The notes beneath the pieces were generated by a model, which made no database searches, was not told the DNA's origin, and worked only from the letters and a program-made list of their open reading frames with translations. Both the position numbers and the translations under genes were made by a program. Shown here piece after piece: positions 26,605 through 30,170 of a stretch of 64,000 bases of DNA. Each line of letters begins with the position of its first letter. The first letter of the stretch is position 1. This stretch comes from Gemmatimonadaceae bacterium (GTDB taxonomy: Bacteria > Gemmatimonadota > Gemmatimonadetes > Gemmatimonadales > Gemmatimonadaceae): assembly GCA_051305945.1 (NCBI GenBank), contig JBPPMH010000100.1:782-64781 (forward strand). The letters run 5' to 3'.

Positions 26605-27082
26605 GCTCATCCGCTCGGCTGCGCCTCCGCATACGCATCCGTCGGCAGACACGAGCACACCAGGTTCCGGTCCCCGTATGCGCTTTCCACCCGCGCCACT
26701 GCCGGCCAGAACTTTCTTCCTCGGATCCACGCCGCCGGAAACGCGGCCTGCTTGCGCGTGTAGCCGTGCGTCCACGCTGTCGCCGTGACCCGCTCCAAAG
26801 TGTGCGGCGCGTTTTTCAAAACGTTGTCCTGCTTGTCCGCCGTCCCGATCTCGATCTCGCGGATCTCCTCCCGAATCGAGATCATCGCGTCGCAGAACCG
26901 GTCGAGCTCGGCCAGCGACTCGCTCTCGGTCGGCTCGATCATCAGCGTGCCCGCCACCGGGAATGACACGGTCGGCGCGTGGAAGCCGTAGTCCATGAGC
27001 CGCTTGGCGATGTCCTCCACCTCCACGCCCGACGCGCCCTTCACCACGCGCGTGTCCAGGATGCACTCGTGCGCCACGGTCC
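26605..27082. repeat. Left copy of a diverged direct repeat, matching gcvP 3' end 29693-30170
   Basis: The two copies align base by base from just past the stop codon to ...gcactcgtgcgccacggtcc, with scattered, mostly third-position differences. Confidence 0.9.
26607..27077 (-). pseudogene. Displaced 3' fragment of glycine dehydrogenase (gcvP'), last 156 codons
   Basis: Compared with the GcvP C-terminus, the translation differs at 6 positions plus the start-codon position (L/V, K/E, A/E, R/K, A/V, E/D). There is no upstream coding continuation. Confidence 0.9.
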
Positions 27083-27085
27083 GCC

Positions 27086-27463
27086 TTATTTCCGCTTCGA
27101 AAAGTAGCGCACATGTGGAATCCCTTCAAAATCGCCGTCCATCGTCCAGATCGTAGCGCCGAACTGCTTCGCTGTCGCCAGAATGATACTGTCCGCCAAA
27201 GGGAGCTTGTGCGCAATCCCAAGCTGGGCGGCACTGAGCGCCAGCCCGCTGTCGAGGTCCACGACCAGGCCTTGGTGAAGCACGGCAGCTATCTGCAGCG
27301 CCTCATCCTCGCCTCGCTGCTGCATGACTCGCCGACATACCTCGACGAGGACGATGGTCGGGACCACCAACGACTCCACATCCTCGATCACGCGAGCAAA
27401 CTGCCCTGCCTGTGGCCCGGCGCCAAAGTATTCGAGCCACGCCGACGAGTCGACCAGATTCAC
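27086..27463 (-). CDS. vapC: PIN-domain toxin VapC
   Basis: It reads [13 protein letters not shown]...VLVEV...[10 protein letters not shown]...TMDGDF, with the conserved D/E/D/D acidic residues. There is a 4-nt overlap with the upstream antitoxin. Confidence 0.85.
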
Positions 27464-27666
27464 ACCCGATCCTTGTCGCGGACCACGGTCGAATCGATGC
27501 CCTTGAGGAAACCACGCATTTCCCGCATGGCGCGGACGGGAATGAACTCGATCCGGTTCTGATACTGGAGTGCCTGCACCTTCTGGCCGGGCTCCAGCCG
27601 CAAGGCCTCGCGGATATCGCGGGGGATGACGACTTGGAACTTGGGGGACACGGTGACAACGGACAT
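27460..27666 (-). CDS. vapB: AbrB/SpoVT-type antitoxin VapB
   Basis: I chose the start at MSVVTVSPKFQVVIPRDIREALRLEPGQKV..., which is the swapped-hairpin motif. Confidence 0.8.
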   Translation of the reverse strand: MSVVTVSPKFQVVIPRDIREALRLEPGQKVQALQYQNRIEFIPVRAMREMRGFLKGIDSTVVRDKDRV

Positions 27667-27731
27667 GGCGACCTCATCGATAGGCGTTCTGTACAACGAT
27701 ATGTCAATCGATGGAATCGCGCAATGCGCCG

Positions 27732-27988
27732 CTAGTCGGGCTCCACGTTCCGCTGCAGGTTAAGCCAGAACTCGGGCGACGTCCCGAACAGCTTCCCGAG
27801 CCGGAGCGCCATCTCGGTGCTCACCGTGCGGCGCTCACGCAGGAGCTCGTTCATCGACTGCCGGAGACGCCGGCAGCCTCGGCCAGCGCCGTGACCGACA
27901 GTCCATACTCCGGCAGGAACTCCTCGCGGAGGATCTCCCCCGGATGGACGGGGCGACGCGCGAGGGGACGGGTGTTGGGTATGCTCAT
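27732..27988 (-). pseudogene. higA: HigA-type HTH antitoxin, frameshifted
   Basis: From the ATG at 27988 the frame reads MSIPNTRPLARRPVHPGEILREEFLPEYGLSVTALAEAAGVSGSR* . The next frame continues RQSMNELLRERRTVSTEMALRLGKLFGTSPEFWLNLQRNVEPD* . A missing base near 27862-27866 (GTCTCC-GGCAG) explains the break. Confidence 0.75.
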
Positions 27989-28003
27989 CGGGTCACACTC
28001 CAG

Positions 28004-28186
28004 CTAGTGATAATCGCAGAACTCCACGTCGTACGCGTCACCGTCCTCGAAACGGAAGCACATGCGCCATTGATCGTTGACGGCGATCGCGTGTTGTCCC
28101 ACCCGGTCACCCTTGAGGGCGTGCAGCTGATTGCCGGGTGGCACGCGCAAATCGGAGAGCCGGGCGGCGGCAAGCGCAGCGAGCAA
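28004..28186 (-). pseudogene. higB: HigB-type (killer protein) toxin, N-terminally truncated
   Basis: Only the C-terminal part is present: ...LHALKGDRVGQHAIAVNDQWRMCFRFEDGDAYDVEFCDYH. An in-frame TAA lies three codons upstream of the TTG at 28186. The parE stop is 17 nt away. Confidence 0.7.
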
Positions 28187-28202
28187 GCCGCCTCGTTAGC
28201 CA

Positions 28203-28517
28203 TCACGCGCGCCGCAGCCAGCGGCGTGGGTCTCGGCGAGCATGCATGCAGGCGATGACACTGGTAGCCCCGGCGACTTCATTCCAAATGAAGAACACGC
28301 CATAGGGGAAGCCGTCGACCAATGAGCGTCGAATCGAGAAGTCTGGCTCTCGATGTTTCACCGGAAACCGTGCCGGCGCCTCACGGATCAAGCCGAGTGT
28401 TCCCTCGACCGCAGCGAGAAAGCGGTCGCCGAGTCCCATCGATCGGCTCTCGTACCAAGCGTATGCTTCCTCGATGTCGGCCTCTGCTTCTGGCCGGACA
28501 ACGAAGGATGAAGTCAC
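28203..28517 (-). CDS. RelE/ParE-family toxin
   Basis: The pattern is VVRPEAEADIEEAYAWYE...FPYGVFFIWNE..ATSVIACMHARRDP. There is a 4-nt overlap with the upstream antitoxin. Confidence 0.75.
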   Translation of the reverse strand: MTSSFVVRPEAEADIEEAYAWYESRSMGLGDRFLAAVEGTLGLIREAPARFPVKHREPDFSIRRSLVDGFPYGVFFIWNEVAGATSVIACMHARRDPRRWLRRA

Positions 28518-28744
28518 CGACCGCTACGTCTCGCGCCTCGGATTCGGGCTTTCACGTCAGCCCAACTTGACCCAACCTTCGGATCCCGACGATACGCATC
28601 CGCTCGACGAAGGAGCTCTACGCGTTGCGCCTCAGTGATCGGCGGCTCCTCGGAATCAGCAGGCAGGCTATCCCACAGCGCGACCGCGAGGTCGACCCGT
28701 TGGGCGGGGGTCAGATTCGTGAAGTCGAAGAGTGGGTGCGCCAT
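28514..28744 (-). CDS. Addiction-module antitoxin (TIGR02574-like component)
   Basis: I chose the start at MAHPLFDFTNLTPAQRVDLAVALWDSL...EAQRVELLRRADAY...SWADVKARI. Confidence 0.65.
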   Translation of the reverse strand: MAHPLFDFTNLTPAQRVDLAVALWDSLPADSEEPPITEAQRVELLRRADAYRRDPKVGSSWADVKARIRGARRSGR

Positions 28745-28987
28745 GACCGAAATCTGCTTCGCGAAGTCGGCCGAAGCAATGACCGCCGGTGGTATATGGC
28801 TAACGCCCACGTTCAGCTGTTGGCGAGCCAAATAAAGGCGAGCGAAGCGAGCTACCAGAAAATCGCCGTCTGCTGCAACGCATCGTTAGGCGTCACCCGA
28901 CACAAGCCCGGAATCTGTAAAGGCACCGAAAAGCAACCGCGATTGCGACATGTTCTACGAACGGCGCGCCCGATGCTCGAGGCGTGA

Positions 28988-29659
28988 CTAGAGATCGTCA
29001 ACGAAGGGAAGAATATAGGATGGACTGAAGCCGACCCCCAAGCGGGCCCTGAACTCCTTCACAAACGCGATGCTTGATGTAACGGCCCATCTTGAAGAGC
29101 CGTAGCCAAGGCAGCGCTGAATGAAGTATGGCTGATATTCTTTTGCGAGGCCATTCTCCGGGAATGAGTTCATGAGCGACCTACTCAACTTGGAGAGCTC
29201 GTTGTCCTCGCCCGGCCAACCTCCGCCTGGTTGCCATTCGGGCTTGAAGTGAATGAGCGCGTTGCGCAGGCGCATTAGAAGTGCAACAGCCTGATATGGC
29301 GCCGCGCCTCTATCGAACTTGGGTTGGTCGCACAGCGCCAACGCGAGATCGTACTTGTCGAGCACCGGACTCCTGTTCTCAAGTTCCCAAGCGGCACGAA
29401 TTCGAGCAAGCACGATTGGATCTTTGGCAATGCCATCTGCGGCGCCCTCCTCGGCGGCATCAGCAAAGAACTCGTTGATGTCGGCTTCGAGGTAGGCAAC
29501 AGTGGCGAAAACACACGAGATGCAAGCAGATGTATGTTCTGCACTGATGTGGAAGAGAATAGGTTCGCGCTTGCCTCTCTCGAACTCGCGCGCCTGCGTG
29601 GCGGACAGCACAGCGGCCATCAGATGGTCGAGCGACAACGGAAGTTTGTGGCGGATCAT
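28988..29659 (-). CDS. Hypothetical protein with an Rx4H (HEPN-like) motif
   Basis: I chose the start at MIRHKLPL (29659). The ORF-track N-terminal extension is an out-of-frame read through the gcvP 3' end. The motif LMRLRNALIHF (CGC AAC GCG CTC ATT CAC, 29249-29266) is present. Confidence 0.45.
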   Translation of the reverse strand: MIRHKLPLSLDHLMAAVLSATQAREFERGKREPILFHISAEHTSACISCVFATVAYLEADINEFFADAAEEGAADGIAKDPIVLARIRAAWELENRSPVLDKYDLALALCDQPKFDRGAAPYQAVALLMRLRNALIHFKPEWQPGGGWPGEDNELSKLSRSLMNSFPENGLAKEYQPYFIQRCLGYGSSRWAVTSSIAFVKEFRARLGVGFSPSYILPFVDDL

Positions 29660-29692
29660 CTCTGTGCCGCCGAGGAAAACCCCACGGCGAGC

Positions 29693-30170
29693 GCTCAACC
29701 GCTCGGCTGCGCATCCACGTACGCATCCGTCGGCAGACACGAGCACACCAGGTTCCGGTCGCCGTACGCGCTCTCTACTCGCGCGACCGCCGGCCAGAAC
29801 TTCCGCCCCTTGATCCACTCCGCCGGAAACGCAGCCTGCTCGCGCGTGTAGCCGTGCGTCCACGCGGTCGCGGTCACCCGCTCCAGCGTGTGCGGTGCGT
29901 TCTTCAGCACGTTGTCCTGCTTGTCCGCCGTCCCGATCTCGATCTCACGGATTTCCTCGCGAATCGAGATCATTGCGTCGCAAAACCTATCGAGCTCGGC
30001 CAGCGACTCGCTCTCCGTCGGCTCGATCATCAGCGTCCCGGCCACCGGGAACGACACGGTCGGCGCGTGGAAGCCGTAGTCCATCAGCCGCTTGGCGATG
30101 TCCTCCACCTCCACCCCTGACGCGCCCTTCACCACCCGCGTGTCCACGATGCACTCGTGCGCCACGGTCC
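29693..30170. repeat. Right copy of the diverged direct repeat (the functional gcvP 3' end)
   Basis: See 26605-27082. Similarity ends at ggtcc/cgttgat here, against ggtcc/gccttat in the left copy. Confidence 0.9.

Follow-up and report, generated by a model that had tools for sequence, protein, structure and literature searches.

The e14 element and phage 21 of Escherichia coli lie in the 3' end of icd, for which the element supplies a substitute end, with the C-terminal pseudogene icdC at the far end; the two copies differ chiefly at synonymous sites, and loss of the element recombines them (PMC13626634). In streptococci, cis-mobilizable elements (CIMEs), ICEs (integrative and conjugative elements) as well as IMEs (integrative and mobilizable elements) form units stacked in tandem at the 3' ends of protein genes, in which the older units are decayed (PMC5704250). 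Homologous recombination at the core genes on either side is, in turn, the presumed route by which compact toxin–antitoxin (TA) islets that carry no mobile-element genes spread (PMC13617665). Here, we analyzed the 3' end of gcvP, the glycine dehydrogenase gene, in a stretch of 64,000 nucleotides (hereafter, the window) from a contig of a metagenome-assembled genome (MAG) of a soil Gemmatimonadaceae bacterium. An islet of 2.6 kb is situated between the intact gcvP and a displaced gcvP 3' fragment and, in the orientation of gcvP, comprises the genes for a 223-aa protein, a ParE pair, a HigBA remnant and VapBC, followed by the fragment. The comparisons described below lend good support to a history in which DNA was inserted with replacement of the gcvP 3' end, the resident end was displaced, and cassettes accreted repeatedly, spread horizontally and decayed; the conserved end of gcvP acts as a reusable docking site.

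Window positions 26604-27082 and 29692-30170 constitute a direct repeat of 479 bp with 90.6% identity (blastn, E=0). Both copies could be aligned without gaps by MAFFT, a repeat search of the window gave a spacing of 3088 bp, and no third copy was detected in the window by blastn. The proximal copy (copy B, 29692-30170) is the functional 3' end of gcvP and holds its last 156 codons plus the stop codon. The mechanical open reading frame (ORF) of this gene extends over 29695-32643 (-), with the annotated start at 32595, which gives a protein of 966 aa (29695-32595, -). The product is 100% identical to a public entry named aminomethyl-transferring glycine dehydrogenase from a MAG classified as Gemmatimonadaceae bacterium, and contains the Pfam domains GDC-P and, at aa 781-902, GcvP2_C. 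The distal copy (copy A, 26604-27082) is the displaced fragment; its ORF (26607-27077, -; 156 aa) is free of frameshifts and internal stops, and covers only positions 31-122 of the GcvP2_C profile, that is, a partial domain. Direct repeats of the gcvP 3' end therefore flank the insert, and the 966-aa gcvP itself stays intact. The preliminary description of this DNA, made from the letters and a list of ORFs, had interpreted the two segments as co-linear repeats comprising the stop codon of gcvP and the 156 codons before it, and both the alignments and the ORF list bear this out. Likewise, its placing of the end of similarity 3 nt short of the stop codon of vapC is exact: the repeat ends at 27082, the stop codon occupies 27086-27088, and the junction between cargo and fragment (27083-27085, junction type ii) consists of three non-homologous nucleotides.

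The two copies differ at 45 nucleotides, most of the differences being synonymous, and the encoded proteins at exactly six residues (L/V, K/E, A/E, R/K, A/V and E/D), as had been claimed. With the NG86 method, dN was 0.0185 and dS was 0.45, so that their ratio, omega, was 0.04. An omega of 0.04 at a dS of 0.45 indicates that both copies diverged as parts of working genes and that the repeat is not a recent in-place duplication, in keeping with the earlier view; the pairwise alignment also disposed of the possibility, raised at the same time, that the two segments might lack significant similarity at the DNA level.

The comparison was extended to related genomes. A protein search yielded three close gcvP relatives, the loci L081, L082 and L083 (96%, 93% and 90% identity, respectively), and further loci (the group of L087, L168, L169, L175 and L176) were reached through the protein cluster of the fragment. 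Downstream of gcvP, L081 and L082 are free of fragments. In L082, in addition, gcvP is followed by native sequence: window positions 27082-26357 align with the gcvP 3' end of this locus plus 258 bp downstream, and the approximately 258 bp after its gcvP stop are homologous to window 26606-26357, i.e., to the sequence past copy A. The non-coding region contiguous with copy A (26353-26603, -) aligns with L082, L168, L169 and L176, and its homologues are found directly after the intact gcvP (L082), after fragments (L168 and L169) or after both copies (L176). Since the sequence downstream of copy A directly follows gcvP in L082, this locus represents an empty site, which is what a search proposed in the preliminary description had aimed to find, and copy A accordingly occupies the place of the ancestral gcvP 3' end. 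Copy B is accompanied by a short relic of gcvP-downstream sequence (29660-29691, -), after which the cargo begins; the relic is homologous to the sequence that follows the stop of fragments in L083 (to 6539) and L168 (to 2597), and also aligns with the beginning of the native downstream region.

In each of six related Gemmatimonadaceae contigs, between one and three gcvP 3' fragments separate varied cargo such as TA pairs, RibD_C and unknown genes. In L083, gcvP is followed by VapBC and a fragment remnant, then by an ORF and HigBA up to a fragment of 0.5 kb, and finally by a ParE pair, a HigBA remnant and VapBC, where the contig ends. L087 and L175 share the order gcvP, HigBA, fragment and type I restriction system. 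L168 and L169 contain two and three fragments, respectively, in various states of decay, between RibD_C, HigBA, HipBA, a ParE pair, DUF4440 and VapBC. In L176, three unknown genes lie between gcvP and the fragment, and the repeat measures 776 bp (positions -513 to +255 relative to the end of gcvP; 91.4% identity). Older fragments have decayed by deletion or frameshift, as seen in the remnants of L083, L168 and L169 and in a 2-nt deletion in fragment f3 of L083, and deletions that removed fragments between modules are recognizable at the joint of the truncated HigA and the VapBC module in both the window and L083, and on the RibD_C side in L169. Among the matches listed, a second gcvP piece was present in none of 80 other GTDB gcvP loci (relatives at ≤75% identity to the C-terminal 400 aa of gcvP, several Gemmatimonadota included), and the five metagenome matches of a DNA-pattern scan (77-81% identity) contained no gcvP fragments. 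The array is a feature specific to this Gemmatimonadaceae clade. A duplication with identical flanks in all relatives, which had been named as a sign of an ancient fixed rearrangement, is not what we encountered, as L081 and L082 are devoid of it and the remaining loci vary in cargo and in fragment number.

Short proteins resembling the gcvP C-terminus on very long contigs (P0172, P0240 and P0239) were discarded as candidate fragments, since they derive from single gcvP genes broken by frameshifts in long-read assemblies. In such assemblies (L084, L085 and L086), a frameshifted gcvP is called as several short ORFs, which mimic C-terminal fragments in protein databases, and no duplication is present. 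The IMG/VR matches (L088-L167) belong to about 300 contigs labelled as viral, mostly of 4-8 kb and mostly marine, with gcvP 51-65% identical to the query; these genes are full-length unless cut by a contig end, 3' fragments are absent from them, and the contigs are probably host fragments or carry gcvP as an auxiliary gene.

The cargo of the window includes, in line with what had been proposed, VapBC, a decayed HigBA and a ParE-type pair. VapC (27086-27463, -) is a toxin of 125 aa with a PIN domain (Pfam, E=3.7e-16) that is annotated as a VapC-family toxin, and VapB (27460-27696, -) is a MazE/AbrB-type antitoxin (PF04014); both belong to a module of 648 bp (V module, 27083-27730). The antitoxin of the ParE pair (28514-28831, -) matches Unstab_antitox (PF09720, E=3.4e-14), and its partner, a ParE/RelE-family toxin of 104 aa (28203-28517, -), matches PF05016 above the cut-off and falls into a cluster named RelE/ParE toxin, with members on two further contigs. 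The genes overlap by 4 nt within each of these two pairs, as is typical of type II TA systems. The matches to PIN/VapC, MazE-type VapB, ParE, Unstab_antitox and the C-terminal piece of HigB all exceed the Pfam cut-offs. HigB (28004-28186, -) is truncated: its match is limited to positions 38-91 of the HigB-like_toxin profile, approximately the first 40 residues are missing, and tblastn with HigB of L083 covers aa 44-93. HigA (27742-27988, -) lacks its last 21 codons and is split over two frames (aa 1-42 and 43-83 of 104 by tblastn) by a 1-nt frameshift, which the DNA alignment identifies as a deletion.

The gene next to gcvP (28988-29659, -) encodes an all-alpha protein of 223 aa that had been labelled as a HEPN protein. 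It has 56 homologues, every one of them annotated as hypothetical, and R132, N133, L135 and H137 are invariant in 30 homologues, which places an R-N-x-L-x-H motif within the Rx4-6H class. No match was obtained in Pfam, NCBIfam or PADLOC. The AlphaFold2 model is confident and all-alpha (predicted local distance difference test score, 89.7), and a comparison with the PDB returned no match at E<0.3, with HEPN toxins appearing only at E of 3-5 and template modelling scores of 0.28-0.38. Since the motif is invariant but neither a family nor a fold match accompanies it, the identification as a possible HEPN-like nuclease is plausible but unproven. This gene is not present in the related arrays.

The cargo proved to be far more conserved between genomes than its surroundings. 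DNA identities between the window and its relatives were 94-95% for the V module (two copies in L083, and L168 and L169), 93-96% for HigBA and 98-98.6% for the ParE pair (L083 and L169), compared with 85-86% for the 5' part of gcvP and 71-78% for the native downstream sequence. Cargo identities of 93-99% against approximately 85% for gcvP imply that the cargo moves horizontally. Furthermore, the order ParE pair, HigBA remnant, VapBC and fragment found in the window recurs behind a fragment in L083, and L169 repeats part of it, including the joint between the ParE pair and the truncated HigB. The left edge of the V module is identical in five contexts, and remnants of the 19 bp found after the gcvP stop of L083 persist in front of this module in L169 and in the window; both observations fit successive insertions beside gcvP followed by deletions that removed the intervening fragments. 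In the window, L081 and L082, the region that varies has gcvP and PIG-L/gcvH as its limits. The islet combines the absence of mobile-element genes with conserved core flanks and with cargo more alike than these flanks, as described for TA islets borne by recombination. Taken together, the empty site and the mobile cargo partly support the earlier idea of an integration that restores the gcvP ORF; its conception as a single event, however, has to be replaced by that of one instance of a tandem accretion array found throughout the lineage.

The positions at which cargo and gcvP meet were compared among the loci. The junction at -476 joins VapC to the fragment in the window, and the same junction, with a common internal deletion, occurs in L083, L168 and L169. 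The -513 junction joins HigA-side sequence to the fragment in three loci, L083, L087 and L175. In L169, it is altered by a small deletion; the fragment of this locus at 3722 resembles an independent junction at -476, but is this HigA-type junction. L176 has its junction at -515/-513, behind other cargo, for which neither blastn nor tblastx detected similarity to the HigA-side sequence. RibD_C is joined to the fragment at -226 in L168 and L169. The left boundaries of gcvP homology number three, possibly four, and for those at -476 and -226 an origin by deletion is possible. Variation is also seen at the right ends of the duplicated segment (+2, +19, about +35 and +255). An account of these positions by domain boundaries was rejected, since both main junctions lie inside GcvP2_C (aa 781-902) and not at its border.

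Within the homology, the differences between the window copies are arranged in blocks: copy B has a private synonymous run from -346 to -253, and copy A a run from -214 to -172, partly common to the distal fragments of L169 and L176. The intact gcvP of the window, when compared with that of its closest relative, L081, shows no drop in identity at -476 or -513, with 0-2 differences per 50 bp between -600 and -300; copy B thus continues the L081-like allele of the upstream gene unbroken. At the 45 differing sites, L081 agrees with copy B at 26 and with copy A at 16, and the other relatives are split about evenly. The comparison of each copy with relatives that had been suggested as a way to tell which one is foreign consequently gave no clean answer, as both are patchwork mosaics with private blocks and the intact gene has no identity break at the repeat boundary relative to L081. 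A derived deletion at the left end is common to the fragments of L168 and L169; to the right of it, they are diverged in the manner of working genes, with a dS of 0.44 and an omega of 0.08. Across all fragment comparisons, omega ranged from 0.02 to 0.18, and such low values indicate that fragments were either recently displaced from working genes or were repeatedly exchanged with them.

Two further observations concern the anchor and what follows it. The last approximately 500 bp of gcvP are 89-93% identical at the DNA level between lineages, compared with 84-86% over the remaining 2.4 kb (window, L081, L082, L083 and L087), and alleles are shared patchily within this 3' end, e.g., GTTTTGAAAAAC, which is common to the distal fragments of the window, L169 and L176; both features are consistent with frequent recombination or homogenisation at the anchor. 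A non-coding stretch of about 250 nt that follows gcvP shows conservation between lineages as well (window 26353-26606 on the minus strand, L082 3041-3298, L168 6219-6478, and L176 12902-13156 and 16243-16501). It contains blocks such as CTACAGTCCTCCG, CTGCGTAAGTGCAT and GCGCCGGCTTGCAGCGTTTCGCCG and terminates in TCTCCGCAGTATAT...AATCnGAAGTTA, where the variable cargo starts at every locus. This region had no Rfam match and its consensus fold no covariation support; it could be a terminator together with an outward promoter, or an attachment region.

Regarding the mechanism, we give an even chance to the view that the repeat is the scar of an insertion-duplication at the gcvP 3' end, with accretion and spread brought about by homologous recombination of the host through the gcvP homology. 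Incoming DNA would have carried a substitute gcvP 3' end (approximately the last 476-513 bp and a few dozen downstream bases) followed by cargo; recombination inside gcvP would keep the gene whole and push the resident 3' end, with its native downstream sequence, beyond the cargo. Repeated within the clade, this process would let new cassettes enter beside gcvP, with older ones shifted outward and decaying by deletion, so that tandem arrays arise, and the window would be a compacted array of this type, formed by the R-N-x-L-x-H protein, the ParE pair, the HigBA remnant, VapBC and the fragment. The formation of each junction was presumably a rare event, and later spread and re-insertion would proceed by RecA-type recombination of the host. 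A cassette made up of a gcvP 3' end, cargo and a gcvP 3' fragment has both homology arms from the same conserved segment of 0.5 kb; carrying both arms, it can enter a naive gcvP and recreate the repeat, which might occur through a double crossover of a linear piece or a single crossover of an excised circle. Loss through recombination between the repeats would be counter-selected by the addictive TA cargo. What favours host recombination is that seven arrays lack a recombinase, that the repeats are long (0.5-0.8 kb) and mosaic with variable right ends, that the implied crossovers lie inside the homology, and that both arms are carried along. This reading is in accord with the present picture of the spread of integrase-free TA islets (PMC13617665).

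Several points weigh against this view. Homologous recombination is inefficient at a sequence divergence of 9-10%. Two unrelated cargo ends meet gcvP within 0-2 nt of each other, at -513/-515, and by a rough estimate the chance of such a shared position is a few percent for four junction types; this coincidence is the best clue to a specific site. Gene conversion within genomes could also account for the fragments' low omega. The sample amounts to about eight related contigs, several of which end inside the array, and an integrase-bearing member may simply be unsampled.

The explanation that competes most seriously, although we consider it less probable than an even chance, invokes a site-specific tyrosine or serine recombinase with an attB core inside gcvP, at about -513 and perhaps a second one at -476, the integrase having been lost from decayed elements that kept attL and attR, as in CIMEs, or being encoded elsewhere and acting in trans, as for satellites, with tandem accretion following the streptococcal ICE/IME/CIME scheme. 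The architecture is that of e14 in icd, where the intact gene and a C-terminal pseudogene lie at opposite sides of the element (PMC13626634), and it resembles the accretion of CIMEs at the 3' ends of protein genes (PMC5704250). The boundary at -513/-515 common to two unrelated cargos, the tandem arrays with the newest unit adjoining the gene, and the empty sites in relatives all speak for such an enzyme. The islet itself has the CIME traits of flanking repeats resembling attL and attR and of lacking integration and transfer genes. However, at least three left boundaries (-513, -476 and -226) and right ends of the repeat from +2 to +255 are difficult to reconcile with a fixed site, and fragments with a common deletion immediately to the right of the boundary remain strongly diverged farther along, which a crossover fixed at the boundary would not predict.

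The searches for the enzyme also count against it. Neither recombinase nor transposase domains were detected in the islet, in the region 18998-33487 or in 34 further ORFs of the window (54 ORFs tested across the window in all), so the element bears no tyrosine or serine recombinase here, in agreement with the preliminary description as regards the islet. No recombinase gene was found in any of the seven arrays, and none adjoins gcvP in any relative examined. The search for integrase-bearing versions of the element, which had been recommended, returned none among eight related loci, 80 GTDB loci, 80 IMG/VR loci and five metagenome matches, with the clade itself thinly sampled; in the 80 IMG/VR loci, moreover, no gcvP fragment stands beside an integrase, every gcvP there being full-length. 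No tRNA genes were detected in the window and no Rfam matches in 20000-34000. Of the two routes originally offered, a lost integrase or capture by homologous recombination, the latter fits at least as well as the former, for which no integrase-bearing version came to light.

Other explanations fared considerably worse. An old in-place tandem duplication, vertically inherited and later invaded by TA genes, so that mobile DNA would not be its cause, might account for the VapC/fragment junction common to four lineages, but it is highly improbable: with an omega of 0.04 at a dS of 0.45, one copy cannot have drifted as a pseudogene since the duplication, the closest relative L081 and also L082 are fragment-free, the cargo is far more alike between genomes than gcvP, and the junctions differ with the cargo. 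Just as improbable is that the fragment is a working gene in its own right, i.e., a stand-alone C-terminal piece of GcvP whose translation begins behind vapC, at the GTG at 27077, and which selection maintains, for instance as a third partner of VapBC. ORFs of 140-213 aa are kept in six genomes, omega among fragments is 0.02-0.09, and an AAGG motif lies 6 nt ahead of the GTG start. However, the fragment begins at position 31 of the 122-position GcvP2_C profile and hence is an incomplete fold unit, older fragments are visibly decaying by deletions and frameshifts, and a low omega is equally expected of pieces recently displaced from, or converted by, working genes. That the assembly joined the gcvP 3' ends of two strain variants in tandem, a concern since the window comes from a MAG contig, has a negligible probability, given that the VapC/fragment and HigA/fragment junctions recur in independent assemblies from other samples and assemblers (ENA, JGI and NCBI) and that assemblers easily resolve copies with 9.4% divergence.

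The surroundings of the array are variable too. Beyond copy A, the G+C content of window positions 24800-26400 is approximately 55%, compared with 66% for the window, and this part encodes two orphan proteins of 184 aa (25778-26332) and 177 aa (25170-25703), neither with a family match save a weak one to beta-flower; the 177-aa protein contains about ten tandem repeats resembling RSPSINP. These features suggest foreign cargo in the older part of the same variable region. Further out, in the variable stretch from gcvP to PIG-L/gcvH, a gene on the plus strand (22596-24533) encodes a multihaem cytochrome c of 645 aa with C-terminal tetratricopeptide repeats; its third-position G+C is atypical, and it has no counterpart at the same position in L081 and L082. 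In L168, distal to the array and the native downstream sequence, the region 8530-9722 and onward contains an IS3-family transposase pair, an AlbA_2/Schlafen-like gene and RadC, and may represent a further mobile element at this hot spot. The short spacer upstream of gcvP, from lplA to gcvP, is also variable: it contains a HicA toxin pair in L083 (505-920), a NYN-domain gene in L087 (5453-5998) and nothing in the window.

Many hot spots of defence and TA genes adjoin core genes without an integrase, and the arrival of their cargo is usually left at homologous recombination of the flanks. At gcvP, each cassette comes with a copy of the flank, so that the succession of insertions can be read from the DNA. 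If host recombination through self-carried arms is indeed responsible, it would explain how very small islets pass from one species to another where conservation of the far flank is lacking, and why addictive TA genes persist between unstable direct repeats; if, instead, an enzyme targets gcvP at -513, a new attachment site would be added in a poorly studied phylum. More tentatively, and short of an even chance, self-armed cassettes entering the gcvP of relatives by host recombination, or an unrecognised recombinase at -513, may build integron-like TA/defence arrays without an element-encoded integrase, which would be a hitherto undescribed mode of movement for small gene cassettes. From a practical standpoint, annotation presents the displaced fragments as partial glycine dehydrogenases, by which metabolic annotation and gene-based typing can be misled.

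When compared with the systems outlined at the beginning, this locus resembles e14 in icd in that the 3' end of a housekeeping gene was replaced, the gene is intact and the original C-terminal piece was displaced to the far end. Unlike the locus studied here, with its 2.6 kb of TA genes and no recombinase found, e14 is a prophage of 15 kb with its own integrase and SOS-induced site-specific excision. The duplicated segment of icd is about 165 bp, the one in gcvP being some three times longer, and the gcvP site also has multi-unit arrays in relatives. The tandem stacking beside the gene and the decay of older units are shared with CIMEs; these, however, are by definition derived from elements with intact, integrase-bearing relatives at the same att site and have short att cores, whereas the gcvP repeats are 0.5-0.8 kb long and mosaic, and no such relative was found. 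As in the integrase-free TA islets, the islet is compact, contains TA genes only and no mobile-element genes, occupies a variable region, here between gcvP and PIG-L/gcvH, and is more alike between genomes than its flanks (PMC13617665; see also PMC10250203). The description of those islets mentions no duplicated part of the flanking core gene on either side of them; each gcvP cassette carries its own copy of the anchor.

In the laboratory, Campbell-type insertion-duplication uses non-replicating DNA with an internal or 3' fragment of a gene, which remains intact if the 3' end is included. The resulting topology is the same as here, namely the gene with a hybrid 3' end, the insert, a hybrid fragment and the native downstream sequence, with the difference that the laboratory version is engineered. 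To our knowledge, no natural, recurrent and array-building counterpart has been described for gcvP or for Gemmatimonadota. The type of scar, a gene 3' end duplicated around an integrated element, is known; new here are gcvP as the target, the phylum involved, a recombinase that is consistently missing, repeats that are long and mosaic, and the multi-unit arrays of TA and defence genes.

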